41,768 nt of DNA from Microcoleus sp. Aus8_D2 (GCF_036702665.1 NZ_JAUBUN010000017.1:1-41768); one strand, 5' to 3'. Shown: positions 1-23,096, numbered from the stretch's first letter. Notes: generated from the sequence alone by a model not told the origin. Program-made: numbers and translations.

Positions 1-23
1 TGAGGCTATGCCGCTCTAAGTAT

Positions 24-300
24 CAAGTTTGTCGGGTTAGGTAAAGTTAATATGCTAATGAGTCCTTTGGGTAGGGGGACTCATTTTTATGGTTTATCCC
101 CTTATTTAAGGGGGTAAAATTAAAGTACAAGATACTAAGCTAGATTTTAGAGGGTGTGGTGTCTAGATTATGCCTAGAAAGTGACAAGCCACAATTAAGC
201 AAACTCAACAACTAGGATGACGTAAATAGGTTAAATGACTAGAATGTATCTAGAAATCAAGGATAGGATGGCTGAAAGCATTGGTAAATGGTTAATTTAC
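24..300 (+). repeat. Repeat-family copy A (~275 bp). It contains the perfect 16-bp palindrome CCCCTTATTTAAGGGG and the CTAGATAC(A/T)TTCTAG motif. It is the inverted partner of 2881-3370.
   Basis: By eye, 150-290 is the reverse complement of 2890-3030 with about 3 mismatches in 150 bp. 28-127 is the reverse complement of 3275-3370. The copy overlaps the last codons of ppk. Confidence 0.8.
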
Positions 301-2472
301 CATATCCATCAAAATTTGCTGAGAGCTCACCTCCGGGTTATTAGCAGGCGGGCGTCGCTGAGAGTAGTGTCCCCCAGACTGCAAATCCCAAGCTTGGCGG
401 TTGTCCGCCAACATCACACCCAAAATTTCTTGCAACTCCATCACTATAGTCGGATCTTCCACTTGCACGATCGCCTCAACCCGCCTTGTGAGATTGCGCT
501 GCATCCAGTCAGCAGAACCAATATACACCTCTTCGTTGCCGCCGTTGAAAAAATAAAACATCCGAGAATGCTCTAAAAAGCGGCCGATAATACTGATAAC
601 TTTGATATTTTCGCTAACACCCTCAACGCCCGGACGCAAACAACAAATCCCCCGGATAATCAAATCAATTTTAACACCCGCTTGGGAAGCTTCGTACAAA
701 GCAACAATAATTTGAGGGTCAACTAAAGCATTCATTTTAGCGACAATCCGGCCGCAGCTACCGGTGCCGCCTTCGGCCTGTAAGCGGCAGAAGTCGGCTT
801 CGCGGCGGATTAATGCTAAAAAACGCTCGCGCATATTGACAGGCGCCACCAACAATTTACGATAAGATAGCTGTCGGGAATAACCGGTTAAATAATTAAA
901 CAAGTCCGTCAAATCCGCACCCAAATCTTCGCGACAACTCAACAAACCCACATCCGTATACAGTCCAGCAGTTTTCGGGTTGTAATTTCCCGTGCCGATG
1001 TGGACGTAGCGGCGAATGCAACTGTCCTCGCGCCGGACTACCATCACCACCTTGGTGTGGGTTTTGAGTCCCACCAAACCGTAGACAACGTGCACGCCCG
1101 CTTGTTCTAACTTGCGCGCCCAATTAATGTTATTTTCTTCGTCAAACCGGGCTTTGAGCTCGACTAAAACGGCTACTTGCTTGCCGTTTTCCGCAGCTTG
1201 AATTAAAGAACTGACGATCGGCGAATCACCAGAAGTGCGGTATAAAGTCATCTTAATCGCTAACACCGAGCGATCGTTCGCCGCCTCAGTAATAAACCGC
1301 TGGACAGTGGCTGCAAACGAGTGATAGGGATGGTGCAGCATCAAATCGCCCTGGCGGATGGCCGTGAAAATATCCTCACCCTCCTCAACATCCAACATCG
1401 ATTTACCTACCATCCTGGGCGGTTCCGAGTTCCGCAAGCGGGGCGGCACCACCGGAGTCCAAGGCGGATCTTTGAGTTCCGGTACCGGCAACCCGACAAA
1501 AGACATCAAATCCTTGAGGCCTAGCAGCCCCTCCACGGCGTAAACATCCTGCTCGCCGAGATCCAACTCGTCCATCAACATATCTCGCAGTGCAGGCGGC
1601 ATAATCGCTGGAATTTCCAGGCGCACCGCAGAACCTGTAAATCGGCGTTTGCGGAGTTCCTGTTCAATGGCCAGCAGCAAATCATCTGCCTCATCTTCCT
1701 CCACAGTCAAATCGGAATTGCGAGTAATCCGAAACGGGTGATATTCCTGAATGTCCATCCCCGGAAACAAAGCCTCTAAATTGTGGGCGATTACCTGTTC
1801 GAGAGGTACCCCCGTCCACACAGGAGATTTGCCCCTCTGCTGCCACTGCAAGTCCTCCGGTAAGGGCAAAAATCTGGGCAGAACCTGCGGTACTTTGACG
1901 CGCGCAAATAGTTCTTCGCGGGTGTCGGGGTCTCTGACAACTACTGCTAAATTAAGACTGAGATTGGATAGAAATGGGAAGGGATGACTGGGGTCAACTG
2001 CTAGGGGTGTGAGCACAGGAAATACTTGTTCTTTGAAGTAGCGATGCAAGTAATTTCGCTGTTCTTGATTGAGGTCAATGTAGTCGAGAATGTGGATGCC
2101 GTTTGCTGCTAATTTGGGCCGCAGAGTTTGCTCAAAATACGAGTGTTGCTGAGTAACCATCGGCAAAAGCCGCTTGTTGATGGCATCTAGCTGTTCTTGG
2201 GGCGTGCGGCCGTCGGAGGTCAATTTACTGACTTTTGCTTCTACTTGCTGTTTGAGTGCGGCTACTCGCACCATGAAGTATTCGTCTAAGTTTGAGCTAA
2301 AAATAGCGAGAAATTTGAGTCTTTCTAGGAGGGGCGTGCGGGGGTCTAGGGCTTCGTGGAGCACGCGGTTGTTGAATTCTAGCCAGCTTTGTTCTCGGTT
2401 GAAGTAGTATTGCGGGTCGCTGAGGTTGATTTCGGTGTAGGTTTTGGCTGGGGTCTTTTTTTGCTTGGACAT
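292..2472 (-). CDS. ppk: Polyphosphate kinase 1 (PPK1)
   Basis: 726-aa ORF whose N-terminus (YFNREQSWLEFNNRVLHEA...RLKFLAIFSSNLDEYFMVRV) and overall length are typical of the PPK1 family. Confidence 0.93.
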   Translation of the reverse strand: MSKQKKTPAKTYTEINLSDPQYYFNREQSWLEFNNRVLHEALDPRTPLLERLKFLAIFSSNLDEYFMVRVAALKQQVEAKVSKLTSDGRTPQEQLDAINKRLLPMVTQQHSYFEQTLRPKLAANGIHILDYIDLNQEQRNYLHRYFKEQVFPVLTPLAVDPSHPFPFLSNLSLNLAVVVRDPDTREELFARVKVPQVLPRFLPLPEDLQWQQRGKSPVWTGVPLEQVIAHNLEALFPGMDIQEYHPFRITRNSDLTVEEDEADDLLLAIEQELRKRRFTGSAVRLEIPAIMPPALRDMLMDELDLGEQDVYAVEGLLGLKDLMSFVGLPVPELKDPPWTPVVPPRLRNSEPPRMVGKSMLDVEEGEDIFTAIRQGDLMLHHPYHSFAATVQRFITEAANDRSVLAIKMTLYRTSGDSPIVSSLIQAAENGKQVAVLVELKARFDEENNINWARKLEQAGVHVVYGLVGLKTHTKVVMVVRREDSCIRRYVHIGTGNYNPKTAGLYTDVGLLSCREDLGADLTDLFNYLTGYSRQLSYRKLLVAPVNMRERFLALIRREADFCRLQAEGGTGSCGRIVAKMNALVDPQIIVALYEASQAGVKIDLIIRGICCLRPGVEGVSENIKVISIIGRFLEHSRMFYFFNGGNEEVYIGSADWMQRNLTRRVEAIVQVEDPTIVMELQEILGVMLADNRQAWDLQSGGHYSQRRPPANNPEVSSQQILMDMVN

Positions 2473-2622
2473 GGTTTGCGGGAGTCTTGGGGAGGCTCGA
2501 TTGTATCTTTACCATTAGTATTGCAGTAGTATTGCGGTAGTGGGGCGGTTGCGGGCGATTGAAATCGCGCCGACACAGACAAAACCCGAGCTCAGAGGGG
2601 TTGAAGAAATTAAAACTTAACT

Positions 2623-2727
2623 GGTTCCAAGGCAGAGCCTTGGAACCCATATTCAGAGGCTCTGCCTCGGCTGGTAAAATGGAGGCAGAGCCTCCCGGAT
2701 CTGCGTTACCAGGCAGAGCCTGGTAAC
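2623..2727. repeat. Array of four short hairpins. All share the apex GGC-AGA-GCC but have different, compensating stem extensions (ccaaggc/gccttgg, gaggc/gcctc, ggaggc/gcctcc, ccaggc/gcctgg).
   Basis: Read directly in 2623-2647, 2654-2668, 2680-2696 and 2706-2727. Located in the ppk upstream region. Confidence 0.7.
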
Positions 2728-2880
2728 GAGTATAAACTCTTGTGGGGTGGGCTTCTAGCCCGCCCCAAAGGCATAACATCATATCACGCACCAATCCCCG
2801 CAATCCAATCCTGCACCGCCTCCAACAAATCCTCTGCATCCACCGCAAAACCTGTTAACGGCAATTCCAGCGGTGTGGCG

Positions 2881-3370
2881 CTAATCCAGATTAGTTACCA
2901 TTTACCAATGCTTTCAGCCATCCTATCCTTGATTTCTAGATACTTTCTAGTCATTTAACCTATTTACGTTATCCTAGTTGTTGAGATTGCTTAATTGTGG
3001 CTTGTCACTTTCTAGGCATAATCTAGACACCACACCCTCTAAAATCTAGCTTAGTATCTTGCACTTTAACTTTAACCCCTTAAATAAGGGGATAAATCAT
3101 AAACACTCCCAAAACCCCCATTTATAAAAAATTAAAATGACGTTTTGGGGTGAAAAACCCGGTTTTGATTTTAGGCCATAACACAAAGTACAAATATCGC
3201 TATGCTTGGCAGACTCTAGAGTAGTGATTTTCGACTTGGTGAGAGTAAAAATATGTAGGATAATTGATAATCTATTATTTAACTTTAACCCCTTAAATAA
3301 GGGGATAAACAATAAAAATGAGTCCCCCTACCCAAAGGACTCATTAGCATATTAACTTTACCTAACCTGA
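2881..3370 (-). repeat. Repeat-family copy B, inverted relative to copy A. It is interrupted by about 185 bp (3096-3277), and the segment TTTATCCCCTTATTTAAGGGGTTAAAGTT is duplicated on both sides of the interruption.
   Basis: 2881-3095 aligns to the reverse complement of 95-300 at about 98% identity. 3278-3370 aligns to the reverse complement of 28-127. The palindrome CCCCTTAAATAAGGGG occurs at 3068-3083 and 3287-3302. Confidence 0.75.
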
Positions 3371-3375
3371 CAAAC

Positions 3376-3606
3376 TTACTCTTTTCTAGAGATTTGTTGC
3401 CAGTGGCGAGGCATTGGTAAATCCCAGTCTAAAGTAATTTCATCTCCTATTTCCCTACCCAAAAAGAAGGGACTAAGCACTTTGTTGGCGTGAGCTTGCC
3501 ACAAAGAAAGTTGGCTACTGTCAATGTCTTCTTGCCACACAGAAGGTTCGTTACCGCCGGGTAAAAGTATCCACCTAATATACAAGTCAAGTCCTAAGTT
3601 GGTCAA
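3376..3606 (-). CDS. Hypothetical protein. Possibly the 3' continuation of 3616-4221 after a frameshift.
   Basis: 76-aa ORF immediately downstream on the same strand. Confidence 0.3.
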   Translation of the reverse strand: MTNLGLDLYIRWILLPGGNEPSVWQEDIDSSQLSLWQAHANKVLSPFFLGREIGDEITLDWDLPMPRHWQQISRKE

Positions 3607-3615
3607 GGTAGTTAC

Positions 3616-4221
3616 CTATCGCTTTCTGTGTCCTGCAATTGGACACCTGCTACGGGTATAAACAGGTTCCCAAGAAACTTTTAAGTTTTGAGATTTGCCT
3701 ACATAAATAACTTTTGGTTCTGTTTTGCTTACCATCACAAAGAACAAACCACGAGAAGGAGGTAAAAAATGGAGTGAAGAAAGAGGCAATATCGGTAACT
3801 GTAAAATACTTTGTGGGGTGATGTCAGTTACCATGTTTATTTGAGCTTTGTCGGAATTCCCTAAGTATTCCTCCATTACAGTCGCTTTTTTAAGAGCGAT
3901 ATGTGGACTCTCATTCGGTAACTTCGCTTTTCGCTCTGTTCGCTCTATCGATTCAGGAGGAGGAAACTCACCCTCATAATGCACTAGACGTTTCCATGTT
4001 TCAGTCATGGTTACATTGCCGAAACATTTTGCATAGGAATCTATATTTAGTTTCTTAGCAAGCTGTTTGTAGAACTCGAAACTCCCAGCACCCAAGTTAC
4101 CAAAAACAAAACCTGAGTTGAAACCTAGGCTTTTACGTGCCGAACAGTATTCTTCTCGCTCTTCTAACGCGGACGTTACGATTTGCGATCGCAAATCACT
4201 TGATAACGGTAAATCTGTCAT
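3616..4221 (-). CDS. Hypothetical protein (island cargo). The C-terminal stretch GLFFVMVSKTEPKVIYVGKSQNLK is faintly GIY-YIG-like.
   Basis: 201-aa ORF with no recognisable family. The ORF 3376-3606 follows after a 9-bp gap in another frame, so this may be a frameshifted single gene. Confidence 0.4.
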   Translation of the reverse strand: MTDLPLSSDLRSQIVTSALEEREEYCSARKSLGFNSGFVFGNLGAGSFEFYKQLAKKLNIDSYAKCFGNVTMTETWKRLVHYEGEFPPPESIERTERKAKLPNESPHIALKKATVMEEYLGNSDKAQINMVTDITPQSILQLPILPLSSLHFLPPSRGLFFVMVSKTEPKVIYVGKSQNLKVSWEPVYTRSRCPIAGHRKR

Positions 4222-4676
4222 AGTTATTCTGTTCCAATCGTTGGTTGTAAACGTTTGGGGAAGTCGTGGTTAGTGTGGTTCGTCAAAACCGCATTACCGC
4301 GCATCAATCTTCCTTAGTTACTCACGATTGCAGGTTTGCAGCCGCTTGTCAACGGTATAACCGTTAAGTTCTGTAAAGTTTTGTTACGGGTAATGGTACA
4401 GAAAAAATAAAAGTTCGTTATATAACCTTTGTTTGTAGCGTAAGTCGCTAATATGGTTTATTTATTATAGCTTACTTAATTAGACTAAAAGGTACAAAAA
4501 AGTTGAATAGGAGGGTTTTTTATTGGCTATTTTTATATTTACTATTTACACCCTGTTTTAGTCCATTTTAACGCTATACTGATTTTGTAAACCTATATGG
4601 TTTTGAAATATTTTGACATATACTGAAAACAGCCAGCGATTTAAGCGCAAAGTATTCTGAACAAGGAAGTGGCAGA

Positions 4677-4916
4677 ATGATTGTGAATTACGAGAATACA
4701 CCCGTCTCTATGCCCCATTATTGGGAACACATAGTAACATCTCATTACCTGACAAAGAATAGGTACGTCCCTGCTTATAAGCTAGAAGCGCTTAAGGATG
4801 GCGATAGCATAATTGATAGATGCCGTCGGAGATGGTGGAAAATTAAATTAGACGAACACAACCAACATTTGAAACCACAAGGTGCTATTATCCGTTTTGT
4901 TTACTGTAACGGCTAA
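4677..4916 (+). CDS. Hypothetical small protein (79 aa) in the AT-rich island
   Basis: Isolated ORF in AT-rich DNA with no recognisable motif. Confidence 0.25.
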   Translation: MIVNYENTPVSMPHYWEHIVTSHYLTKNRYVPAYKLEALKDGDSIIDRCRRRWWKIKLDEHNQHLKPQGAIIRFVYCNG

Positions 4917-5575
4917 AGCACTATTAAACCGTAAATCAAAGTAGGTCAATCTCAGTTGGTCTACTTTTTTGTGGGTAAATAAAGCGGATTTAGTAGTACA
5001 GGATTACGGAACTTTATAGGTTGGTAACATCGTTGTCAACATTAAACAGTGTTATTTAAGTGATGTACATATGTAAGATTTGTAAACATTTACGAGTATA
5101 GGGGAGTACAATAGATAAGTTTTATTAATATTAAAATTAGAGTAATTGTAAATCAATGTAACGGAAATATTGCATTAGAACTAACTAACTAGATAAAAAA
5201 CATGAACAGAGAGATACAAAAATAGTGGGTAGAAAGAGGTAGTAAAGAAAAATAAATCCCCCCCAGGGTTTTGTACCTTTCAAGCCTTAAAGGAGGCAAA
5301 AATGGCTGTTTCTGTGGCGATTAAGAGCATGAGTGATTATAAATTGCAAAAAATGAAGGGAAAGGATAGCGACTCACTTCATTAATAAAACTTATCTATT
5401 TAAATATAGGGGGGTTCAGTTTTGATTAGTAGCTGTAATATTTTTATTATTTATCCCCCCATATTGGGGGGGATAAAGTTATATATTTACTGATGATATG
5501 ACCTACAGGTTCACTCAGTAAGTAGGCACAAAAAAACCTACCGGGTTAGGGTAGGTAGGTATGTACTGGGTAGGG

Positions 5576-7027
5576 TTAGACTACTACTAACTCTGTTGAC
5601 TCATTAATACCTAAGTAATGTCTTAGAATCACATCCACACTGTTGCCACAACTGCTAGCTATGCGTAACAGAGCGTTGTTATTGTGGCTATTAGCTTGCG
5701 CGGTTAGCGTGATGTAAGTGTGACGGCAATGATAGGACGCTAAATAACCACTAATTTTGCCTTCACGAGCCAATTGTGAGACTATACCGGGATAGAAATA
5801 CGTTACTTCTTCCCCTGATTTGAGAGTTTGTTTTTTTACATAATCACGCCAAACTCTCCCTAGGGAAGAAGTATCTATATACCCCCCATTGGCATTTGAA
5901 AAAATTAAACCCTCTGTTTTGTCGCCTTTAATTTCTAACAACAAAGCTTTTAAACGTTCAAAATCTTCAAAATAAAACAAGCGGCTCTCGCCCGTCTTAG
6001 TGTTTTTAACCTTGCGAGTAGAAGCACCTAGTGACTTACTAATTTTGATAACATGACGTTCAAAATTAACGTCACGCCAAGTTAGTGCATAAACTTCGCT
6101 AGGGCGACAACCCGTTAAAAACAGAAATTCGATAAACGGTGCAAACATGATAGAACCTTTGCGAGTTCTATTGCTATCAGACTCATAAAACGCTTTGATG
6201 ATGATATCACGTTCATCCTTAGTAAAGGCACGCTTATCATTCTCTAAAGCTTTCTCATCCTCTACTTCATGCCATTCTACAATCTCACCATTAACTACTT
6301 TGTCAGCATACTTTTGCTGTGTTGTGACAACAGGTACGCTAAATTTGTTAGTAGCAAAAGGATTGTTAGTAGCCGAATTAACGATTAATCCTTTTGATTG
6401 GGCATACTCAAAGGCTTGATTTAACGCTCTCAAACTCAAAGTTTTGAGTTTGGATGTTATTGAATCAAGCGCGGTTTCAATACCCTGTTTGTCATTTAAA
6501 TGAACGGTAGCTAGCGGGTTGTCAGATAGTGTCAACTGACTACCCTTGTTTTGAAAAATTTTACCGTAAATTATGTTGCCATATTTTTTGTACGTTGTGT
6601 CAAAAGTAGTTTCTTCTATGGTTGTTTTTTTCCACAATAGATATGCTTCCCACATCGCACCTACGGTTATCTCAGGTACGGTTTGAGTCGTACCCGGCAA
6701 TTGAAGTACATCAGCTAACTTAGCATATTTGCCCCCTCCTAAGCCATATTTAGCAAGGGTAGGGTCAAACAGCTTTTCCCACTCTGGATGGTCTAAATCA
6801 GCCTCCATCGCAGCAGCAATTTGGCTAGCCCGCTTCCAATCCTCTGGGGTATCAGAGTAGCCGTATTTGCCTATTCCTAAGCACTTAGGCTTACCCTTGA
6901 GTGATTTACCGTCTAGTAGCTCCCACAGGGTGCTATGGCGCTTGGGGAAGCGCAAGGCGAGTGACCCTTTGTCAGAGTAAACAGATACATCACAAGCGGA
7001 CTGTGCCTTTTGAGATTGAGCTTTCAT
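5576..7027 (-). CDS. Tyrosine recombinase / phage-type integrase
   Basis: C-terminal catalytic signatures are present: LTGCRPSEV (Arg), HCRHTYITL (H-x-R-H box) and VILRHYLGI (Tyr). A ~480-aa protein with a long N-terminal arm/core-binding region. Confidence 0.88.
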   Translation of the reverse strand: MKAQSQKAQSACDVSVYSDKGSLALRFPKRHSTLWELLDGKSLKGKPKCLGIGKYGYSDTPEDWKRASQIAAAMEADLDHPEWEKLFDPTLAKYGLGGGKYAKLADVLQLPGTTQTVPEITVGAMWEAYLLWKKTTIEETTFDTTYKKYGNIIYGKIFQNKGSQLTLSDNPLATVHLNDKQGIETALDSITSKLKTLSLRALNQAFEYAQSKGLIVNSATNNPFATNKFSVPVVTTQQKYADKVVNGEIVEWHEVEDEKALENDKRAFTKDERDIIIKAFYESDSNRTRKGSIMFAPFIEFLFLTGCRPSEVYALTWRDVNFERHVIKISKSLGASTRKVKNTKTGESRLFYFEDFERLKALLLEIKGDKTEGLIFSNANGGYIDTSSLGRVWRDYVKKQTLKSGEEVTYFYPGIVSQLAREGKISGYLASYHCRHTYITLTAQANSHNNNALLRIASSCGNSVDVILRHYLGINESTELVVV

Positions 7028-7059
7028 GGTAGGTTCTCTCTGTGACTATTGGTTTGTCA

Positions 7060-7160
7060 AGGTTCTGGGTTTCTAGATACTTTCTAGATAATGACTAGAA
7101 TGTGCCTGGTATTTAACCCCTTATTTAAGGGGTTAAACCATAAAATCAGTATAACATGGT
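7060..7160 (-). repeat. Repeat-family copy C. It is abbreviated, in the same orientation as copy B, and lies immediately 3' of the integrase.
   Basis: TTTCTAGATACTTTCTAG...ATGACTAGAATGT...AACCCCTTATTTAAGGGGTTAAACCATAAAA matches the B and A motifs. Confidence 0.65.
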
Positions 7161-7170
7161 TTTCGCCTGC

Positions 7171-10100
7171 TTAATCGCTAATCCAGGCGATATGAATACC
7201 CATGTGAGAGTCGGCGAGTTTGCGGGTGAAAGACGAAAGCGCATTTTCGCACGGGCACGAGTGCAAGATTAAGGCGATGTGCGGTTTTTGCAGCCGGTGT
7301 TTGAGTTGGGGGATTAATCGCTTGAATTCCGGGGCGTTGCGGATGGCGGGGATGTCTGTATCTGCGGGGAAGATTGTTTGATATAGTTGGGTACAGAGTT
7401 CTTGGGCGATCGGGCTTATATCGGTTTCGCCTTCTAACGCGCGAATGTTGAGGGGTACGGGGAAGGTTTTATCTGTGGGTTTGAGTTGTTTTAGGAGTGT
7501 GGGGATATCTGGATTTTGTGGGTGGTTGTCCGGTATTGGGGAATTGGTGGGTTGAGTGTGCCATGCTTGATAAAATTCTGGGTAAGTCTTGCTTTGGGCA
7601 CAGTCAGAGATGACGAGGCAGCACTTGTGATAAAGAGTAAAGTCGTTTTTGTAGATTTCGGAAGTTAGGCAATCTTTCAAACCAGAGACTGCGATCGCGA
7701 AGTGTTTATCTTTCATGATTTCACCTAAGCTATCTGCCGCTATACTACGGATATGTCTATCACCTGAATTGCTGATTAACTCGACTAAAGCGGCGATCGC
7801 ATCCGGGTTGTTTTTGCATATTTGCCCTAGGCTTACAGTCGCTCTCCTCCGGGTATTTTTATCCTGAAAAGTACCGATTAACTCGACTAAAGCTGAGAGC
7901 GCAACTGAGTTATCTTTTTCGATTTTTCCTAAGATATTTAGGGCATTTCTCCAGGTATTGTCATCCTCAGAAGTACCAATAAGCTCGTCGCAATTATCTA
8001 AATTTGCGAGTATCAGAGAGTTGTTTGTTACTGATTTTGACAAGCTATATGCCAATTTAATCATCGTATTGTCATCTTCAGAAGTAGCACTCAGTTCATC
8101 AAAATTTACAAGTATAACTAAGTTATTTATGTCAATTTTTCCTAAGCTATTTGCCGCTGTCATCCGGGTATTTTGTTCGCCTGAATTGCGAATTAACTTG
8201 ACTAACCCGGAGATTGCAACTGGGTTATCTTCACCTATTTCTCCTAAGCTTTTTGCCGCTTGCTTCCAAGTATCTTCATCCTGAGAACTACGGATTAACT
8301 CGACTAAAGCTTCGATCGCAACAGGGTTAGATTTGCCTATTGTTCCTAAGCTAGCTGCCGCCTCCCTCCGGGTATTTTCATCCTGAGAATTACGGATTAA
8401 CTCGACGAAAGCTTCGATCGCAACTGGATTATCTTTGCTTATTTCCCCTAATATATTTGCCGCTATCCACCGGGTTTTTTCATTACCTGAATTGCGGATT
8501 GACTCAACTAAAGCTACGATCGCCCTTTTCCGATCCGTCTCCTTCAGTATATCCCATGAACTCTCTGCCAGTGGAGCGATAAATGTTTGCCACTCCTGCT
8601 TTTCCTCATCAAAATAACCAAACCCCCACTTAATAACCTGCGACACAATCTCATCAGCAAAACTGCAATCCTTAAACTCAGCAATCCCCGCAGCCGCGAG
8701 AAAATATGCCCGATCTCCATAAAATTTACCACACCCATCCTCAAACTCAACCAACGCCTTAATAAACGCTTCCTTCTCCTCCTTCCCAACCTCCTCACGG
8801 CCCAACCACAGCAAAATAACCTCCTTCCACTGCTTCTCAAAAATCCGATATCGAGCATCAGGATGCTGCGGATTCCCAGGAAAATGATTCAAGAAAAAAT
8901 GCCAATCCTCAGCCGCCAACGCCGCAAAATATTCCTGAAAAGTCGGATGATAAAAAGCATAAATCCCTTCCGCCGTCTCCGCATCCCTCGCCACCAAATT
9001 CAGCCAACCCAAGCGGCAAGCTATCTCAAACTGCGATGCACCCATCACCCGATATCCCACACTTTCTCGTAACTGAAACCGATCCGTTTCATTTAACATC
9101 CCAGCCAGAGCCAATTTCCCCAAAGCCGCATTCAAATCCTGCTGCTGACTCCAATTCAGGCGCGGTTCCTTCCACTGATACAAAGCAGTCACAAACCGCC
9201 GATAAAGCTTAGCCTTAGTATCCGGCAAATCCCCATCCAACGACTGCCAAGTACCGCACAGCAGCGAACATCTCAGCGGATTTTTTACTAAGTCTTGAAT
9301 TCGCTCTTTCCCCGATGCTGCTAATGCTTCCCGTAGCTGTTGGGAAAGCACCCCCCCAGCCCCCCTTGCTAAGGGGGGAGTAAGAGTTTCTTCTGTATTT
9401 TGGGTTGGGATGGAGGGAGGAAGAACCCCCCCAGCCCCCCTTGCTAAGGGGGGAGTAAGAGTGTTCCCTTCTCCTGTCGCCTGCGTTGATAAACCACGAG
9501 CAAAAGTATCCCCTTCTTCTCTTGTCCCCCCCCTTAGCAAGGGGGGGTTAGGGGGGGTTCCAAACCACTTATCGATAAACATTTCCACCTGTTCGGGATA
9601 GGAAAACTCCAGAGTACGATAAGTATCAAAAGTATCCAAGGCAGAGCCGATCGCATCCCAAACATTCTGCCGACAACTTAGCACAATCCGCGCCCTTTGA
9701 ACACAGCCGCCCGTTCTAACTTGTCGCTGAATTTCCGCCAAAGGATTCCCATCACCCGCAGCCATCTCATCCGCGCCATCCAACACCAACCAAACCCGCT
9801 CAGCATTAAACTGTGCTAAAAAATCATCTTTAATATCCGCCGTCGCCTCAGCTTTCCCAACCCTCTTAATTGCCGCCAGCAACCAAGTATCAAATAAATA
9901 CGATTCTAAATCTTTCCCCTGCAAATCCGCCAAAGCAACCCAAATAACAATCGCCTCGGAAATTTCCTCCGCCACCCAATTAGCAATCTGCCGCAACAGC
10001 GTAGTTTTCCCCGCCCCCGGTTCCCCAATAATTGCTAACCGCTTCCCATTGCTCTTCGGGCTACTTCCTCCCCGCAAAACTTGCTCCAGAAACTCCTTAT

Positions 10101-10992
10101 TTTCAAAGGTTTGAGTTACTTCTTTTTCCCGGTACAAATCCGAACCTTCCTCCGCCGCCAAATCCTCCCGGCGCTGAGTCACTTTGTGCCGTTCAACCAA
10201 TCCCAGCGGCACATAAACATCATCAATTTGACGATCGCCAAAAGTTAGCTGATTGCTACTGAGCCGCTGCTGTTCTTTCTCGTCTAAAATCTGCTGACAA
10301 ATAGCCCGCCAGTCAATCGGTTGGTAAACAATGCGGCTCTTTTGCACAATCTCCTCAAGCCAAGCATACATCTCTTGGGTTGTGGTATCAATTCGCGTCA
10401 AAGTTTGCCCGGTGAATATCTGAAAAACCTTTTCATTTTCCTTGATTTCTTGAGCAAAGTATGCAGCCACCAAGGCAAACAACTCTTGCTCTAACTTCGT
10501 TTTGTAATGTGCGACATCGCAATTTTCGAGGGCAACTTCCAGCAATTTTTGCTCAACTGCTGCTACCCGATTCTGCTTTAACTCATCTGTGGCAGTCAGC
10601 AGCAATTCTATCTCATCTAAACCCTCAATCGGAATCCCAGACGGGACTGTTTCTTTATTAACCTGTTCTAAATCTAATTTGAGCTTTTCGAGCTTTCGTT
10701 TCAACCAATCAAAATCGCGCCGCCTGTCTTGCAGCGAATAGCTAAAACTCTCTCGGTTAGCGCTATTTTTCGGATCGATTTCCTGCTTGCATTCTGAGGC
10801 GATTTGCTGCTGAGCTTTCAGGAAAGATGTTTTCAGCGCTTTTTCTAAATCGTGATTGACAATTTTACCGTTTCGCGATATCTTTTTAATGCCTGTCAAA
10901 CAGAGATGTTTTGCTGCATCATTAACTTGAGTTCCTAGTATGCCTTGCCAAGCGACTGTGAAAAGCAAGCCCAAGGTAATCGGATCTGACAT
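7171..10992 (-). CDS. STAND-class NACHT NTPase with C-terminal HEAT/PBS-lyase repeats and an uncharacterised ~300-aa N-terminal domain.
   Basis: Walker A is AIIGEPGAGKTTLL. The NACHT-type Walker B is VWLVLDGADEM. The C-terminus has many tandem HEAT-like repeats (…NPVAIEALVELIRNS.DE.TRR.AA.SLG.IG…). The start is placed at the internal ATG 10992 (MSDPITLG) with GGAG 9 nt upstream. The ORF-track extension to 11130 is encoded by the tandem repeat. Confidence 0.85.
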   Translation of the reverse strand: MSDPITLGLLFTVAWQGILGTQVNDAAKHLCLTGIKKISRNGKIVNHDLEKALKTSFLKAQQQIASECKQEIDPKNSANRESFSYSLQDRRRDFDWLKRKLEKLKLDLEQVNKETVPSGIPIEGLDEIELLLTATDELKQNRVAAVEQKLLEVALENCDVAHYKTKLEQELFALVAAYFAQEIKENEKVFQIFTGQTLTRIDTTTQEMYAWLEEIVQKSRIVYQPIDWRAICQQILDEKEQQRLSSNQLTFGDRQIDDVYVPLGLVERHKVTQRREDLAAEEGSDLYREKEVTQTFENKEFLEQVLRGGSSPKSNGKRLAIIGEPGAGKTTLLRQIANWVAEEISEAIVIWVALADLQGKDLESYLFDTWLLAAIKRVGKAEATADIKDDFLAQFNAERVWLVLDGADEMAAGDGNPLAEIQRQVRTGGCVQRARIVLSCRQNVWDAIGSALDTFDTYRTLEFSYPEQVEMFIDKWFGTPPNPPLLRGGTREEGDTFARGLSTQATGEGNTLTPPLARGAGGVLPPSIPTQNTEETLTPPLARGAGGVLSQQLREALAASGKERIQDLVKNPLRCSLLCGTWQSLDGDLPDTKAKLYRRFVTALYQWKEPRLNWSQQQDLNAALGKLALAGMLNETDRFQLRESVGYRVMGASQFEIACRLGWLNLVARDAETAEGIYAFYHPTFQEYFAALAAEDWHFFLNHFPGNPQHPDARYRIFEKQWKEVILLWLGREEVGKEEKEAFIKALVEFEDGCGKFYGDRAYFLAAAGIAEFKDCSFADEIVSQVIKWGFGYFDEEKQEWQTFIAPLAESSWDILKETDRKRAIVALVESIRNSGNEKTRWIAANILGEISKDNPVAIEAFVELIRNSQDENTRREAAASLGTIGKSNPVAIEALVELIRSSQDEDTWKQAAKSLGEIGEDNPVAISGLVKLIRNSGEQNTRMTAANSLGKIDINNLVILVNFDELSATSEDDNTMIKLAYSLSKSVTNNSLILANLDNCDELIGTSEDDNTWRNALNILGKIEKDNSVALSALVELIGTFQDKNTRRRATVSLGQICKNNPDAIAALVELISNSGDRHIRSIAADSLGEIMKDKHFAIAVSGLKDCLTSEIYKNDFTLYHKCCLVISDCAQSKTYPEFYQAWHTQPTNSPIPDNHPQNPDIPTLLKQLKPTDKTFPVPLNIRALEGETDISPIAQELCTQLYQTIFPADTDIPAIRNAPEFKRLIPQLKHRLQKPHIALILHSCPCENALSSFTRKLADSHMGIHIAWISD
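9348..9560. repeat. Intragenic palindromic repeat insertions in the NACHT gene. CCCCCC(AGCCCCCC)TTGCTAAGGGGGG occurs as two direct copies (9348-9386 and 9425-9462) plus one opposite-orientation copy (CCCCCCCCTTAGCAAGGGGGGG, 9527-9548).
   Basis: Read directly. They are translated in-frame as TPPLARGAGGVL (twice) and PPLLRGG, between the NACHT and HEAT modules. Confidence 0.8.
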
Positions 10993-11031
10993 TTGACGGT
11001 TCTCCTGATGCGCTGCTCGAAGCGGGTTAGT

Positions 11032-11360
11032 TTGATTGTAGGCGATCGACTTTAGTGGCGATCGGGCGAGTTGACAGGTGCGTCGCTTTGAGATTTTCGA
11101 TGTTTGGCTAAGGATTTTCTGTGGCGACACACCCGAATACTTGATTGTAGGCGATCGACTTTATTGGCGATCGGGCGAGTTCACAGGTGCGTCGCTTTGA
11201 GATTTTTCATGTTTGGCTAAGGATTTTTTGTGGCGACACACCCGAATACTTGATTGTAGGCGATCGACTTTATTGGCGATCGGGCGAGTTGACAGGTGCG
11301 GAGCTTTGAGATTTTCGATATTTAGTTAGGGATTCTTCGCAGGCGACACACCCTACGATT
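11032..11360. repeat. Tandem direct repeat of 3 x ~109 bp, each unit containing HIP1-like GGCGATCG motifs. It lies between the HTH regulator gene and the NACHT gene.
   Basis: Units start at 11032, 11141 and 11250 and are >90% identical (TTGATTGTAGGCGATCGACTTTA(G/T)TGGCGATCGGGCGAGTT(G/C)ACAGGTGCG...). Confidence 0.85.
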
Positions 11361-11465
11361 ACTACCGTGTCCGAATTTCGGGGCAATTGTTGATCCGATT
11401 TAAAACTGCTATAATTTCGACAAAAAGGTCGATCGCAAAAACAAAACTCGATCGCCAAAAAGCAC

Positions 11466-11684
11466 CTACTTTTCCATGATGATCACAAAATCCTCAATCA
11501 GCACATCAAAGGTGCGGGCCAACTTGTACACTGCCGCAAAGTCAACCATCGCCATCCCCTGAGAGCGGGCATAATTGCTAATCGTACTGTAGCCGACGCC
11601 CGATCGCTCCGCAACCTCCTTCAGCGTCCATCCCTTCTCGGCCGCCAACTCTCGAACCCGCAACCTGACTAAACCTTTACTCAT
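11466..11684 (-). CDS. XRE/Cro-C1-family helix-turn-helix transcriptional regulator (72 aa)
   Basis: Canonical HTH_XRE segment LRELAAEKGWTLKEVAERSGVGYSTISNYARS. Confidence 0.85.
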   Translation of the reverse strand: MSKGLVRLRVRELAAEKGWTLKEVAERSGVGYSTISNYARSQGMAMVDFAAVYKLARTFDVLIEDFVIIMEK

Positions 11685-11849
11685 ATAAACTATTTACAAA
11701 ATTTTGGATTTAGTATAATATAGCAAAAAGCGATCGCCCCCGGTCAGCGAAACTAAAGGCGATCGCCTGTTAAAATTAATTCTGACAGATAATTTCAGTC
11801 GGTCGCACCTAGCAGATAGATTGAGCTACCACCACCAGATGCAACTACA

Positions 11850-12320
11850 ATGATATCAGAGAATCAGTTAAGGTCGTCAGCGATCGGCGCCTCAAAAATT
11901 ATTCACAAATCGTCAATAGTCAATCCGCGATCGAGATTTGTCACCGAAGAAACAGTAGCACTTTTGTTCAACATCACGCCCGACCAAATTTACCGAATCG
12001 AATGCTGTCACAACATGGTGTACGTACACGCCAAAGGCCTGAGTAGATTTGTCAGCTACGCCGATTTCCCCCCAATCTTAGAAGTAAAACCAGCCTGCGC
12101 TCAAGATTTTCTCGGCTGGTACAAACGCTGGAAACGCACCCAAGCACCAGAATTTTGGACTAAATTCTATACGTACAACTTCAAAGCCGCTGTTTCAGTT
12201 GACAGCTTGCTGGAATGGGGTACATTAGTCGCTACAGTTAAATCGGTAATTTCTGCCTCAGCACTGCAACAACTACGAGATGTTTACGCTCAAGAAAAAA
12301 CCTTAATGGAAAGTTTCTAA
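11850..12320 (+). CDS. Hypothetical protein (156 aa), divergent from the HTH gene
   Basis: ORF with no recognisable family. The start may lie at an internal Met. Confidence 0.35.
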   Translation: MISENQLRSSAIGASKIIHKSSIVNPRSRFVTEETVALLFNITPDQIYRIECCHNMVYVHAKGLSRFVSYADFPPILEVKPACAQDFLGWYKRWKRTQAPEFWTKFYTYNFKAAVSVDSLLEWGTLVATVKSVISASALQQLRDVYAQEKTLMESF

Positions 12321-12418
12321 AGCAGGCGGGGCGAGCAAACGCGCGATTGTTGGCTGCGAGTTTTGTAAGGTGCGCATAGCGCACCCTACAGGATAGATAT
12401 TATCCTCAAAACTCTTTC

Positions 12419-13807
12419 TTATCTTCCAATCCCTACATATTGGAAACCAGCAGCTTCTAAAACCTTCTTGTCCAAGAAATTGCGGCCGTCAATCATCACT
12501 GCATGAGCCATCAATTTGGCCATTTTATCGTAATCTAAATTACGAAACTGTTCCCAGTCAGTCACCAACACCAAAGCATCGCAACCATCAGCCAACCTTT
12601 CCGGATCGGTTTCCACCAAAACACCGGACAAACCGTGACGCATCCCAGTTTGAGAAACAATCGGATCGTAAGCTTTAACTTTCGCTCCCAATCTGTTCAA
12701 ATTATCGATTAAATTCAGCGCTGGGGCATCCCGCAAATCGTCAGTATCCGGCTTGAAAGTCAAACCCAAAAGTCCGACTGTTTTACCTTTGAGAATCTTC
12801 AAAACTTGCTGCAACTTTTCAATTGCAATCAAGCGCTGGCGTTCGTTAACTTCCACCGCCGCTTTCAGCAAATGCGCCTCGTAGCCGTAATCCTCAGCAG
12901 TGTGAACTAATGCCGAGACATCTTTGGGGAAACAAGAACCGCCCCAACCGATACCAGCCTGCAAAAACTTGCCGCCAATTCGCGAATCTAAACCGATACC
13001 TTTGGCTACTTGGGTAACATCTGCGCCGACACGATCGCAAATATTAGCCACTTCATTGATAAAGCTAATCTTAGTCGCCAAAAAAGCATTAGCTGCGTAC
13101 TTAATCATCTCCGCCGAACTGATATCAGTCATCACTACAGGTACCACAGGCAAAGACGGATTTTCTGCAAACTTGCGATCGACAATTGGCGTGTATAATT
13201 GTAGCATCATATCCATCGCCCGCTGAGAGTTGCTGCCGAGAACAATGCGATCGGGATTAAACGTATCGAAAACCGCGCAACCCTCCCGCAAAAACTCTGG
13301 ATTGCTAACCACATCAAAATCAGCACCTATTTTTGCTGCTACTTCCTCACCTGTAACGCCCTCACCGCTTTGAGCTTTTTGACGTTCAGCCAAACCGTCT
13401 AATACAATCCTCCGCACCCAATCCCCCGAACCGATGGGTACAGTTGATTTGTTTACGATCACTTTGTAATCGCCGTCGAGATGAGCGCCAATGCCGCGCG
13501 CAACCGCTTCCACGTAGCGAGTATCGCTTTCTCCAGTGGGCAAAGGAGGAGTCCCTACCGCAATGAATAAAATCTCCCCGTGAGCCACTCCTGCTGCTAA
13601 ATCTGAAGTAAATTCTAGATTTCCCGATTGAGAAGCAGAGGACATTAATTCAGACAGTCCGGGTTCAAAAATAGGAGACTGTCCGGACTTCATTAATTTA
13701 ACTTTTTCTTCGTTGTTGTCTACACAAATGACATGATGTCCGATGTGGGCCAAGCAAGTGCCGGTGACTAAGCCAACGTATCCTGTACCGATGACGCAAA
13801 CACGCAT
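12419..13807 (-). CDS. ugd: UDP-glucose 6-dehydrogenase
   Basis: The N-terminal Rossmann motif is [16 protein letters not shown]. The catalytic-region motif GGSCFPKD and the overall ~460-aa architecture fit the family. The start is set at ATG 13807 with a GAGGAG RBS. The upstream extension PIPNSQF x3 is an artefact of the heptamer repeat. Confidence 0.92.
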
Positions 13808-13843
13808 AGAAATCTCCTCAAAGTTAGTAAATAAATCAGGTAG

Positions 13844-13912
13844 GAATGGGAATTGGGAATCGGGAATTGGGAATTGGGAATTGGGAATTGGGAATTGGGA
13901 ATTGGGAATTGG
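13844..13912. repeat. Heptanucleotide tandem repeat (GGGAATT)n of about 10 units (one GGGAATC variant), STRR-like. It sits 40-105 nt upstream of the ugd start.
   Basis: Read directly. Confidence 0.9.
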
Positions 13913-13972
13913 TATAGTCCTCAATTATGAATTGCGAACAATTTGTAGGGGTAGTGCCTCGCCGTGCCTACC

Positions 13973-14027
13973 CTCTTCTGCAGCAGCAGGGGGCAACCAC
14001 TCTTCTGCAGCAGCAGGGGGCAACCAC
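13973..14027. repeat. Tandem duplication (2 x 27-28 bp) CTCTTCTGCAGCAGCAGGGGGCAACCAC in the uxs-ugd intergenic region
   Basis: Read directly. Confidence 0.85.
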
Positions 14028-14057
14028 GGGGGGAAAGCCCCTACAATCCCCCAGTAT

Positions 14058-14996
14058 CTACTTTTGGTTTCCCTCGATACGATCGCGAAAATCTTTCACA
14101 GTCAACTCTAAACCTTGATCCAGCGGAATAGTTGGCTCCCACCCCAACCAACTTTTAGCACGAGTAATATCCGGTTGTCGCTGTTTTGGATCGTCTTGTG
14201 GCAGCGGTTTGAAGATGATTTCCGCCCCAGGATTAATCATGTTTTGAATTTTCTGGGCCAGTTCCAAGATAGTGTATTCGCCGGGATTCCCCAAATTCAT
14301 CGGCCCGATTTCGTCGCTATTCATCAAGCGCATAAATCCTTCCACCAAATCAGAAACGTAGCAAAAACTCCGTGTTTGGGAACCATCGCCATACACAGTC
14401 AGCGGTTGATTGCGCAAAGCTTGAACAATAAAATTGCTGACAACTCGGCCATCATTTTCTAACATTCGCGGGCCGTAGGTATTAAAAATTCGTACAACTC
14501 GAATGTCTACCCCATTTTGGCGGTGGTAGTCAAAAGATAGGGTTTCAGCTACTCGCTTCCCCTCGTCGTAACAGCTCCGAATACCGATACAATTAACGTT
14601 GCCGCGATAGTCTTCTGTTTGGGGATGGACATCCGGATCGCCGTAAACTTCTGATGTGGAAGCCAGAAAAAATCTTGCTTTTACCCGTTTCGCCAATCCC
14701 AGCATATTTAGTGTCCCGATGACATTCGTTTTGATTGTCTTGACGGGGTTGAACTGATAGTGTACTGGCGAAGCCGGACAAGCCAGATGGTAAATCTGAT
14801 CTACCTCTAACCGAATGGGTTCCGTGATGTCGTGGCGGATCAGCTCAAAATAGGGGTTGTCCAGCCATTTGAGGATATTGCGCTTAGTCCCGGTGTAAAA
14901 GTTATCCAGGCAGACTACCTCGTGTCCTTGGGCCATTAAGCGATCGATCAGATGGGAACCGATGAAACCCGCACCGCCTGTGACTAAAATTCTCAT
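14058..14996 (-). CDS. uxs: UDP-glucuronate decarboxylase (UDP-xylose synthase, SDR family)
   Basis: [41 protein letters not shown]... is the characteristic UXS N-terminus. The catalytic YDEGKR (YxxxK) is present. Confidence 0.9.
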
Positions 14997-16365: not shown

Positions 16366-17052
16366 ATGGAGAACATCGTCACAGAAAAACAGCAGCGGGA
16401 AGCGCAGCTTCTGGAAGCTTTTATTAACATGGTGAAATCTCCTGACGGAGACTTTGAGGCTCTCGGACACTTGTTCAAAGCTGCGAGCGATGGTTATAGC
16501 CTCCAGCTAATAATAGATATTCTTTCCCAGGAACCTCAAGCAAAACGGGCATTTAAAGAACGTCCGCGTTTGGGAAATGTCGATTTGGAAGCACTCCACC
16601 AATTGCCGAAAAATACGCTCGGTTATCATTATGCAGTTCATATGCTAAGCAATAACCTCAAAGTTTTGTCAGCCAAAGAAATCCCTGATGATGACTTGGC
16701 ATTTTTGGCTGTGCATACTACTGAAACCCATGACTGTTGGCACGTCGTCACCGGTTGCAGCACCCATATAACAGGAGAAATTGAGTTAGAGGCTTTTTAT
16801 GTGGCGCAGATGTCGGCTTCTCGTTTTTGGCTGGCACTCCTTGCTAAAAATTTGTTAAAATCTACATTACAAGACATTGAAACCAGCGGCGATTATATGG
16901 ATGCGCTATGCCGAGGTTGGTTGCGGGGAAAACAGGCTAAACTGCTATTTGGAATTGAGTGGAATAAGCTGTGGGAAACGCCGCTGGCAGAAGTGCGCGA
17001 TCGCTTAAACTTAAATAGAGTACCGGAAACCGATCGCATTCTTTCAGCCTAA
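16366..17052 (+). CDS. Coq4-family protein (ubiquinone/plastoquinone-biosynthesis COQ4 homolog)
   Basis: HDCWH-x11-E (HDCWHVVTGCSTHITGEIE) matches the COQ4 HDxxH-x11-E zinc-ligand motif and its spacing. The start was chosen at ATG 16366, which has AAGGAGG 8 nt upstream; the ORF is open from 16264. Confidence 0.7.
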   Translation: MENIVTEKQQREAQLLEAFINMVKSPDGDFEALGHLFKAASDGYSLQLIIDILSQEPQAKRAFKERPRLGNVDLEALHQLPKNTLGYHYAVHMLSNNLKVLSAKEIPDDDLAFLAVHTTETHDCWHVVTGCSTHITGEIELEAFYVAQMSASRFWLALLAKNLLKSTLQDIETSGDYMDALCRGWLRGKQAKLLFGIEWNKLWETPLAEVRDRLNLNRVPETDRILSA

Positions 17053-17077
17053 TTCAGCGACCAACTTCGAGACCATC

Positions 17078-17112
17078 TCAAAACCCGGTTTCTTGAAGAA
17101 ACAGGTTTTTTT
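17078..17112 (+). terminator. Putative Rho-independent terminator after the Coq4-like gene (hairpin GGTTTCTT-GAAGAAAC followed by T8)
   Basis: AAAACCCGGTTTCTTGAAGAAACAGGTTTTTTTT read directly. Confidence 0.5.
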
Positions 17113-17139
17113 TCGTTGAGCTGAATCGCCTTTCATCCC

Positions 17140-18273: not shown

Positions 18274-18283
18274 TGGGGAGACT

Positions 18284-18922: not shown

Positions 18923-18939
18923 GGTTCATTGCTCATCAT

Positions 18940-19701: not shown

Positions 19702-19714
19702 ACAATTCTCCTAA

Positions 19715-20779: not shown

Positions 20780-20878
20780 GGCTTGATAATTTTAAGTTGA
20801 TTATTCGCGAAGATTTACTGTGCATATAACCTCATCTGCTGACTTAGCACTTCAGCAGATGAGTAGGTTCAGCACCTT

Positions 20879-23086: not shown

Positions 23087-23096
23087 AAACTTACCA

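Follow-up and report, generated by a model that had tools for sequence, protein, structure and literature searches.

A 4.3-kb element that splits a NACHT gene in Microcoleus, probably one of a family of small integrative elements

Microcoleus sp. Aus8_D2 carries a small AT-rich islet with a gene for a tyrosine integrase, beside a gene for a NACHT NTPase. Where does this islet end, what did it insert into, and what kind of element is it? We studied it within a stretch of 41,768 nucleotides (nt) from this genome (GCF_036702665.1, NZ_JAUBUN010000017.1:1-41768), which we call the window. A reading of the sequence alone had placed a small integrase islet at 3096-7160, between copies B and C of a hairpin-forming repeat. 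It was right about a small integrative element with a tyrosine integrase, but the borders were wrong: the junctions are at 2879-2889 and 7176-7186, and the element spans 2890-7175 (4,286 bp). Its insertion point is in the 3' coding part of the NACHT gene: the gene is split 30 codons before the stop codon. We think it likely that this is a site-specific, gene-interrupting integrative element of 4.3 kb, one of a family known mostly from Microcoleus and related Oscillatoriales. The features at its junctions are:

2784-2878, minus strand: displaced 3' end of the NACHT gene, encoding ...ATPLELPLTGFAVDAEDLLEAVQDWIAGIGA, with the stop codon at 2784-2786
2879-2889: direct repeat on the attR side, CGCTAATCCAG, identical to 7176-7186
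7176-7186: direct repeat on the attL side, CGCTAATCCAG
7171-11130, minus strand: NACHT-HEAT-NCC-H-NCAB1 gene as now read, 1,319 amino acids, 30 codons short

We set the element at 2890-7175 because two findings fix its junctions. First, a perfect direct repeat of 11 bp, CGCTAATCCAG, stands on either side of it (2879-2889 and 7176-7186). In the sense of the NACHT gene, this 11-mer reads CTGGATTAGCG, with copies at 7186-7176, where the NACHT open reading frame (ORF) now ends, and at 2889-2879. Second, two relatives have the empty site. In Microcoleus sp. PH2017_37_MFU_D_B (L040; L001, L003 and so on are labels of the loci or contigs that we compared), positions 4670-5482 align to 7986-7174 of the window, and positions 5470-5576 align to 2889-2783 (92%). 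The two alignments overlap exactly on the repeat, and the polyphosphate kinase gene (ppk) is found 306 nt further on. The same holds for L041. A site-specific integrative element is marked by direct repeats at its junctions and an empty site in relatives, and this locus has both. The sequence-only reading had suggested a search for empty sites in close relatives as a check, and such variants do exist. The attB sequence is CATATCGCCTGGATTACCGATACACCGCTGG, attL is ...ATCGCCTGGATTAGCGATTAAGCAGG, and attR is GGTAACTAATCTGGATTAGCGCCACACCG; the restored attB junction is expected to read ...CATATCGCCTGGATTAGCGCCACACCGCTGG..., and the attP junction is expected to read ...GGTAAATGGTAACTAATCTGGATTAGCGATTAAGCAGGCG....

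Other loci without the islet, which were found by searching with ppk homologues, were less useful as empty sites. The integrase is also missing from L033, L034, and L036. In L033 and L034, the NACHT gene is followed directly by ppk, with no islet in between, but we did not accept these loci as empty-site sequences: the NACHT protein there ends at NCC-H with a different C-terminus (in L033, it lacks NCAB1), and no attB sequence is seen. L037 joins the equivalents of window positions 7268 and 2885, but it is a decayed remnant of the NACHT gene with its own deletion of ~95 nt. The deletion lies between short repeats, and the locus keeps the right half of attB: a remnant that matches 7402-7268 is fused to a match of 2885-2783, just upstream of ppk.

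Evidence for the split gene comes from the rejoined protein. The minus strand of 2878-2784 encodes ...TPLELPLTGFAVDAEDLLEAVQDWIAGIGA*, and removing the element in silico yields an ORF of 1,349 amino acids. The interrupted protein matches positions 15-113 of the 140 positions of Pfam's NCAB1 profile (50.4 bits), and the rejoined protein matches positions 15-138 (74.9 bits). Ten homologues from other Microcoleus and Oscillatoriales are uninterrupted across the junction, where they read ...IHIAWITDTPLELPLTGF... or ...MGIHIAWITDTPLELPLTGF.... We also compared the segment 2784-2878 to NACHT C-termini and found it to be related. The element adds just Asp and a stop codon (at 7171-7176) to the truncated protein. 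Thus, removal of the element restores its host ORF, as in XisA/XisC-type elements. The annotation should be corrected accordingly: the NACHT gene, which had been described as adjacent to the islet, is interrupted by it, and the 95-nt stretch upstream of ppk is the gene's missing tail.

The NACHT gene itself varies among strains: it is absent from L036, it is a remnant in L037, and it is split into ORFs of 599 and 306 amino acids in L040. PADLOC found no solid match to a defence system for this gene, just weak matches at the level of the P-loop (E ~1e-4); the gene's label as defence-like comes only from its domain architecture. Two sets of repeats lie in or near this gene. A G/C-rich palindromic unit, CCCCCCAGCCCCCCTTGCTAAGGGGGG, occurs at 9346-9462 and 9528-9555 in three copies: two are direct, share 98% identity, and are separated by 75 nt, and the third is inverted. 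These units are in frame and encode a repeated peptide, TPPLARGAGGVL; they look like small insertions that are tolerated in a linker. Also, three tandem units of 109 nt (95% and 77% identical) at 11032-11358 cover the NACHT gene's annotated start codon (GTG) and the sequence upstream of it.

The sequence-only reading had seen no tRNA gene and had proposed that the hairpin repeat was the target. ARAGORN found no tRNA or tmRNA anywhere in the window, in agreement with the first point, and an Rfam scan of 1-12000 gave only subthreshold chance matches. The target is not the repeat, however, but an 11-bp sequence within the 3' coding region of the NACHT gene. As for composition, the GC content is 0.383 for the whole element, versus 0.424 for the window, 0.503 for ppk, and 0.47-0.50 for the flanking genes. 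The region is AT-rich, as had been noted, but this places the element only at the 10th percentile among windows of the same size. Between its junctions, the element contains:

2890-3103, minus strand: the end far from the integrase, with a conserved terminal motif, two CTAG pairs, a conserved GACGTAAATAGGTTA block, and hairpin B
3071-3097: hairpin B, within the far end
3104-3277: insert of 174 nt between hairpins B and B', with no match in any related locus
3278-3377, minus strand: hairpin B' (3284-3309) and the terminator-like hairpin that closes the cargo gene (terminator scan, 3317-3345)
3376-4221, minus strand: cargo pseudogene, comprising p201 (3616-4221) and p76 (3376-3606) in the same frame
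4216-4345, minus strand: conserved leader/promoter region of ~115 nt, upstream of the cargo gene and present in eight elements
4677-4916, plus strand: orf79, a conserved small gene with a homologue in L045
5302-5385, plus strand: micro-ORF of 27 amino acids with an AAGGAGG ribosome-binding site, partly conserved in L045
5450-5477: variant of the element's palindrome
5536-5556, minus strand: terminator-like hairpin after the integrase gene (terminator scan)
5576-7027, minus strand: gene for an intact tyrosine recombinase of 483 amino acids (PF00589, PHROG 1, structure model)
7028-7175, minus strand: the end next to the integrase, with a promoter-like motif, hairpin C, CTAG repeats, a conserved CAGAACCTTGACAAACCAATAGT leader, and a ribosome-binding site

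The integrase, which the sequence-only reading had located correctly, is a member of the tyrosine recombinase superfamily by sequence and fold. It matches PF00589 (35.5 bits; the cut-off is 27.1) and PHROG 1, "integrase" (2e-27). In an AlphaFold model (mean pLDDT of 75), an N-terminal beta-beta-alpha-beta domain is predicted to be followed by a helical middle and a C-terminal catalytic domain. The best folds from PDB, according to Foldseek, are Tn1549 Int (E = 3e-8), a Staphylococcus aureus integrase, lambda Int, and XerH; by sequence, the sole match in PDB is a weak one to 3nkh (E = 3e-4). The arm-binding domain PF12167 is recorded on one member of the family. Across 23 family sequences, R308, R435, and Y471 are invariant. 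Judging by motif spacing only, Y432 is at the position of His-II (Y-H-x-R-H-T instead of H-x-x-R-H), and N462 is at the position of His-III. Y432-x-x-R435 is invariant in the family, and more distant relatives also show the pattern PY.TRHT. When we searched 1.84 billion representative proteins with a profile, we found 5,790 relatives (E <= 1e-3), most of which share only the catalytic half. We tried using the names of these distant homologues as a guide to the protein's identity, but they were uninformative. Cyanobacterial plasmids contain only relatives that are 30% identical.

Closer relatives show that the element is not alone. A word-indexed search found 324 homologues of the integrase at E <= 1e-3; nearly all of these are ~480 amino acids long and are from Microcoleus or Oscillatoriales, and some genomes have several copies. 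We obtained 30 related loci by scanning one genome per species. For comparisons of the upstream region, we used the 29 of these with upstream sequence and the window's own contig, or 30 loci in all. About 28 of the 30 share the same plan at the integrase end: a motif that resembles an extended -10 element (AAAACyATGyTATAsT) a few bases inside the junction; an element-specific hairpin; two or three TCTAGAA repeats at 11-nt spacing; CAGAACCTTGAYAAAYCAATAGTTTCAGGAG; and then the ATG. The 62 nt directly 5' of the integrase's ATG are 80-90% conserved across loci, which is more than the coding sequence. In the window, the extended -10-like motif is TGTTATACT (7148-7156), hairpin C is at 7111-7137, and three CTAG repeats lie at 7073, 7084, and 7095, at 11-nt spacing.

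The far end is conserved as well, in at least nine elements, with shared CTAG pairs (GACGTAAATACGTTA and GCTGAAAGTATTGATTT). In the window, the paired CTAG sites are 11 nt apart (2936/2947 and 3012/3023). All of the family elements that we examined have phased CTAG repeats at both ends. We use X for the 268-nt sequence that makes up the far end; its positions 1-130 have homologues 1.6-7 kb downstream of the integrase in L003, L004, L007, L011, L024, L027, L031, and L045.

At least seven related elements, of 2.8-7.4 kb, have the same architecture at their ends. Each of seven elements is bracketed by its own direct repeat (8-16 bp perfect, and in some cases within a longer imperfect match). The target is usually in or at a protein-coding gene, and the genes differ:

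L003: 11-bp direct repeat, at the start of a gene beginning MLEIKDIHTYYG
L004: direct repeat, 8 bp perfect and ~19 bp imperfect
L007 and L011: ~20-bp direct repeat with one mismatch, at the start of a gene beginning MNPIQFGTDG
L027: 12-bp direct repeat, mid-gene
L031: 16-bp direct repeat
L045: ~16-bp imperfect direct repeat, splitting a peptidase M42 gene on the opposite strand

We also considered whether the split gene is always oriented with the integrase. This is true for the window, L003, L007, L011, L019, and L027, but L045 and L046 are exceptions: there, the split gene, which encodes a peptidase M42, is on the opposite strand.

How might the element have inserted? We propose that a circular form, whose attP would consist of the far end, CTGGATTAGCG, and the integrase end, recombined with a chromosomal attB, ...ATCGCCTGGATTA[C/G]CG.... 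The recombinase would be a two-site enzyme of the lambda/Tn916 type, with a catalytic domain that cuts and rejoins DNA within the shared 11 bp; its N-terminal domain may bind the CTAG repeats as arm sites, as happens in the lambda/Tn916 systems. Excision would be the reverse reaction and would restore the full-length NACHT protein. If the element can still move, it would probably need helper functions from a larger relative, such as the second element by ppk (described below).

Several findings weigh against this account. First, the attB of the relatives, TGGATTACCGATACACC, differs from the window's junctions at 1-3 positions, which leaves the exact crossover point undefined. Second, Tyr and Asn seem to replace two of the catalytic histidines (again by motif spacing), and the activity of the enzyme is an assumption. 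Third, the case for CTAG binding by the N-terminal domain is an argument by analogy. Fourth, the window's copy contains no candidate for an excisionase. Finally, an exact search of metagenome contigs for the attP junction gave 0 matches. (A generic pattern of the far end followed by the integrase end gave 13 matches in metagenome contigs, all by chance.) Because no circular form or attP junction was found in these contigs, we infer excision rather than observe it.

Could the element be a dead relic, that is, a single insertion that has lost the ability to excise and whose integrase ORF simply has not degraded so far? We consider this unlikely. In our own reading, too, the copy in the window is a reduced derivative of the family. 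Where the sequence-only reading had counted two or three hypothetical genes, three-frame translation shows one cargo gene that is broken by a single in-frame TAG: p201 and p76 share a frame, with one TAG between them. The suggestion that the element was partly decayed was therefore a good one. Residues 52-89 of p201, and no other part of it, match the C-terminal motif of a ~250-amino-acid protein of the family (in L003, L004, L008, L011, and L018). The cargo has no matches in Pfam, PHROG, NCBIfam, or PADLOC. We rejected two other ideas about p201: a GIY-YIG nuclease motif ("VIYVGKSQNL") in its C-terminus has no support from Pfam, even if p201 and p76 are read through, and the 198-amino-acid gene behind the same leader in L027 is unrelated to it.

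Related elements carry proteins of ~250, ~125, and 90-135 amino acids. The last of these, which contains the motif TRTIRVPIALAD, looks like a ribbon-helix-helix (RHH) DNA-binding protein, although it has no match in Pfam; an example is encoded at 14592-14870 of L011. The RHH-like gene and the 125-amino-acid gene are missing from the window's copy, as are any replication module (primase/helicase) and any packaging genes. In the 7.3-kb element of L011, and only there, a primase-helicase with DUF3854, D5_N, and DUF5906 is split into two ORFs (11630-14424), which suggests that full-size elements replicate after excision. What the window's copy has kept intact are the integrase and both ends.

Besides the in-frame stop in the cargo, the relic explanation could draw on the 174-nt insert with the duplicated hairpin in the far end, and on the lack of both an excisionase-like gene and an attP junction in metagenome contigs. 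In contrast, the integrase is full length and has every residue that is invariant in the family; the direct repeats match at 11 of 11 positions; and both ends retain all of the conserved motifs. Also, orf79 is 88% identical to its homologue in L045 (3792-4028) at the protein level, versus 81% at the DNA level, which suggests that it is under purifying selection. L045 also has a paralogue of orf79 that is 35% identical. orf79 has no match in Pfam and fits no known family.

Two separate proposals, which we rate as rather improbable, would make the family more than selfish DNA. One is that its elements are reversible switches for host genes in a filamentous cyanobacterium without heterocysts; here, the switch would gate the C-terminal NCAB1 domain of the NACHT protein, and transcription of the integrase would start at the conserved promoter-like motif next to the junction or continue from the split gene. 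The other is that the palindromes are secondary recombination sites that let cargo modules invert or be exchanged like cassettes.

We located four copies of the palindrome CCCCTTAWWTAAGGGG in the window (at 98, 3076, 3289, and 7117), versus 0 copies expected by chance. Three of these copies are in hairpins B, B', and C of the element, and the other is in a copy of X at the start of the window (copy A): 86-292 and 2897-3103 are 207-nt inverted repeats with 97% identity, and 25-124 and 3278-3377 are 100-nt inverted repeats with 96% identity. X is contiguous in copy A (25-292). In the element, X is split by the 174-nt insert, and a 39-nt region with the hairpin is duplicated as B and B'. The claim that B and C share an orientation turned out to be ambiguous, since the hairpin is a near-perfect palindrome: B and C are 96% identical over 27 nt if inverted and 77% identical over 39 nt if direct, and only the flanking TTTATGR favors the direct orientation.

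Every element that we examined has its own palindrome, which recurs 3-5 times: downstream of the integrase gene, in the gaps between cargo genes, and close to the far end. The sequence of the palindrome differs from element to element, while the internal positions are the same. Because each element has its own palindrome at internal positions, we view the hairpins as marks that punctuate the interior of the element, with possible roles as terminators, as binding sites for proteins, or in rearrangements within the element. The module of leader and cargo has the same orientation as the integrase in the window, L011, L022, and L025 and the opposite orientation in L003, L004, and L027, which hints at internal inversion or a cassette-like exchange.

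A related explanation is that this particular element is a domesticated switch of the XisA/XisC kind, which the host excises on cue (stress, infection, or differentiation) to produce the full-length NACHT protein. The parallels are real: the element lies within an ORF that its removal restores exactly; the recombinase gene is at the start of the element and is co-oriented with the split gene, as co-oriented xis genes are (PMC4874684); by motif spacing, the integrase has the R-Y-R-Y signature (Tyr for His) that is reported for XisA, XisC, and XisG (PMC3610870); and the 11-bp repeat has the same length as XisA's GGATTACTCCG (PMC11249958). Nevertheless, we consider this explanation improbable. 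The element is patchily distributed, and other Microcoleus have an uninterrupted gene, a gene with a different C-terminus, or no NACHT gene. The family is found in many unrelated genes, in both orientations, with several copies per genome, and one member has a primase-helicase. Excising the element would regain just 30 C-terminal residues, its cargo is decaying, and Microcoleus does not form heterocysts. Taken together, the patchy presence, the many targets, the multiple copies, the replication module in one relative, the lower GC content, and the decay of the cargo favor a selfish integrative element over a fixed host switch.

We see little chance that the element is what remains of a prophage or is a PICI-like phage satellite. 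Its integrase and its small size would fit, and a 356-amino-acid protein of the neighboring element has a weak match to "head decoration" in PHROG (9e-5). However, the element contains no matches to capsid, terminase, or other phage families; there is no tRNA target; and the integrase family is essentially absent from the 2.9 million viral contigs of IMG/VR, where we found only one relative (25% identical). The earlier judgment that this is a small integrative element and is too small for a prophage was correct. Finally, we give almost no credence to the original model, in which the palindromic repeat is targeted and B and C bound the element: the four copies, the resemblance of palindromes with an asymmetric spacer to recombinase core sites, and the duplication of the hairpin around the 174-nt insert speak for it, but it is at 2889 and 7176, and not at the hairpins, that homology to the empty sites ends; no such hairpin is present in the empty sites; the hairpins are internal, lying 40 nt inside one end and ~190-420 nt inside the other; and each related element has a palindrome of its own at these internal positions and also between genes.

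We now return to the rest of the element's contents. The stretch between the cargo and integrase genes was described as ~1.3 kb of AT-rich non-coding DNA. It is AT-rich (the GC content of 4222-5575 is 0.352), but it includes orf79 and the conserved leader. The leader (4216-4345) is conserved in eight elements, where it is upstream of unrelated genes; the other seven are L003, L004, L011, L022, L024, L025, and L027. RNAalifold predicts two stems: GGAAG/CTTCC, which is invariant, and an inner one in which three pairs show compensatory changes. (A third inner stem was dropped because the alignment was too poor to score.) The leader has no match in Rfam; it could be a regulatory RNA, a promoter or operator, or a replication signal. 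The 27-amino-acid ORF with an upstream AAGGAGG is present, as reported, and L045 conserves its ribosome-binding site and its first 12 codons, after which there is a frameshift in L045. A perfect 20-nt inverted repeat (5110-5129 and 5381-5400) brackets the region of the micro-ORF.

The window also contains the end of another element, beside ppk:

25-292, plus strand: copy A of X, the end of a second family element, inverted and 96-97% identical over 268 nt
292-2472, minus strand: ppk1, polyphosphate kinase, with four PP_kinase domains

Copy A begins at the last base of the stop codon of ppk; a second member of the family abuts this stop codon, with copy A as its terminus. The second element continues beyond the window on L001 (contig JAUBUO010000016 from the Microcoleus sp. 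assembly GCA_036702645.1, which is the reverse complement of the window and records the integrase protein). There, 17028-21452 contains genes for proteins of 64, 67, 778, 356, 68, and 320 amino acids. None of these could be assigned to a family, but they have homologues at the DNA level next to family integrases in seven other loci. In the genomes with empty sites, ppk is followed by a 56-amino-acid gene, an 86-amino-acid gene, and a DUF2854 gene.

Insertions seem to recur at the 3' end of ppk (292-310 in the window). The protein varies in its last 1-6 residues: most Microcoleus have MDM[VA][MIL]N, the window has MDMVN, and other C-termini are MNMAETVLH, MDMGNGE, MDMVF, and MDMAL (proteins P0121-P0173). 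In L019, a family integrase begins 140 nt after ppk (L019 2380-2530). Because of this variation and the integrase in L019, we regard the 3' end of ppk as a second hot spot for insertion. We asked if the second element is of the same type as the element at ppk in L019, but their 356-amino-acid proteins are unrelated. The two elements leave ppk and the stranded tail of the NACHT gene bracketed by the 207-nt inverted repeats, which could be a substrate for inversion.

Two other observations concern repeats in the window. Heptamer tandem repeats (TGGGAAT / AATTCCC) are found at 13847-13912; the same repeat occurs at 12259-12304 of L033, and it is directly downstream of ppk in the relatives with empty sites. 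Segments at ~18940-20750 and ~22330-24140 are paralogous (~67-86% identical, 3.38 kb apart) and are probably a tandem gene duplication.

In the literature that we searched, we found no description of this family from Microcoleus, and a family of small gene-splitting elements of this kind is apparently undescribed so far, although the way in which the element in the window inserted looks conventional. The results define a recognizable family of very small integrative elements from Microcoleus that split ordinary genes. Elements that interrupt genes have so far been catalogued almost only in heterocyst-forming cyanobacteria: Hilton et al. listed 101 interruption elements in heterocyst formers and three in non-heterocyst cyanobacteria, none of which were Microcoleus, and tyrosine recombinases were found in only six target gene groups and only in a few nitrogen-fixation and hydrogenase genes (PMC4874684). 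The family provides compact pairs of integrases and att sites, with different specificities for sequences of 11-16 bp, and it provides a marker of how strains of bloom- and mat-forming Microcoleus differ. Should excision prove to be regulated, the family would exemplify the programmed restoration of genes outside heterocysts.

How does the element compare with known systems? By layout and motif spacing, it resembles the XisA, XisC, and XisG elements, which interrupt nifD, hupL, and nifH1 in Anabaena, Nostoc, and Nodularia. Both kinds of element lie within a coding gene between short direct repeats (11 bp here and 11 bp for XisA), both have a large recombinase (~480 amino acids) encoded at one end, with Tyr in place of the first catalytic His, and excision would restore the ORF. 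Unlike those elements, ours is in a host without heterocysts, its target is a NACHT NTPase instead of a nitrogen-fixation or hydrogenase gene, and it varies among strains; it also belongs to a family with many targets, multiple copies, and one replication module. Compared with lambda Int, Tn916, and Tn1549, the predicted structure of the integrase is most similar to Tn1549 Int (E of 3e-8) and to chains of the lambda Int tetramer; the phased CTAG sites (11-nt period) on both sides are placed like arm sites, and a short segment of identity is duplicated at the junctions. In contrast, the sequence similarity to lambda and Tn1549 Int is very low, the protein is ~100-130 amino acids longer, both catalytic histidines appear to be substituted (from motif spacing), and this copy has no excisionase, conjugation, or phage genes. 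The tycheposons of Prochlorococcus (bioRxiv 10.1101/2020.12.28.424599), which we compared by their description, are also small cyanobacterial elements with a recombinase, an optional primase/helicase (as in L011), and variable cargo, and the specificity of the integrase sets their insertion site; but tycheposons use tRNA genes, whereas the Microcoleus family uses protein-coding genes, and the copy in the window lacks a replication module. Finally, as in the attC arrays of integrons, imperfect palindromes that are specific to each element recur between genes and bracket modules of either orientation. Unlike integrons, the element does not have an IntI signature (structures of IntI match less well than Tn1549 Int) or an attI-Pc layout, and its junctions are not at the palindromes.

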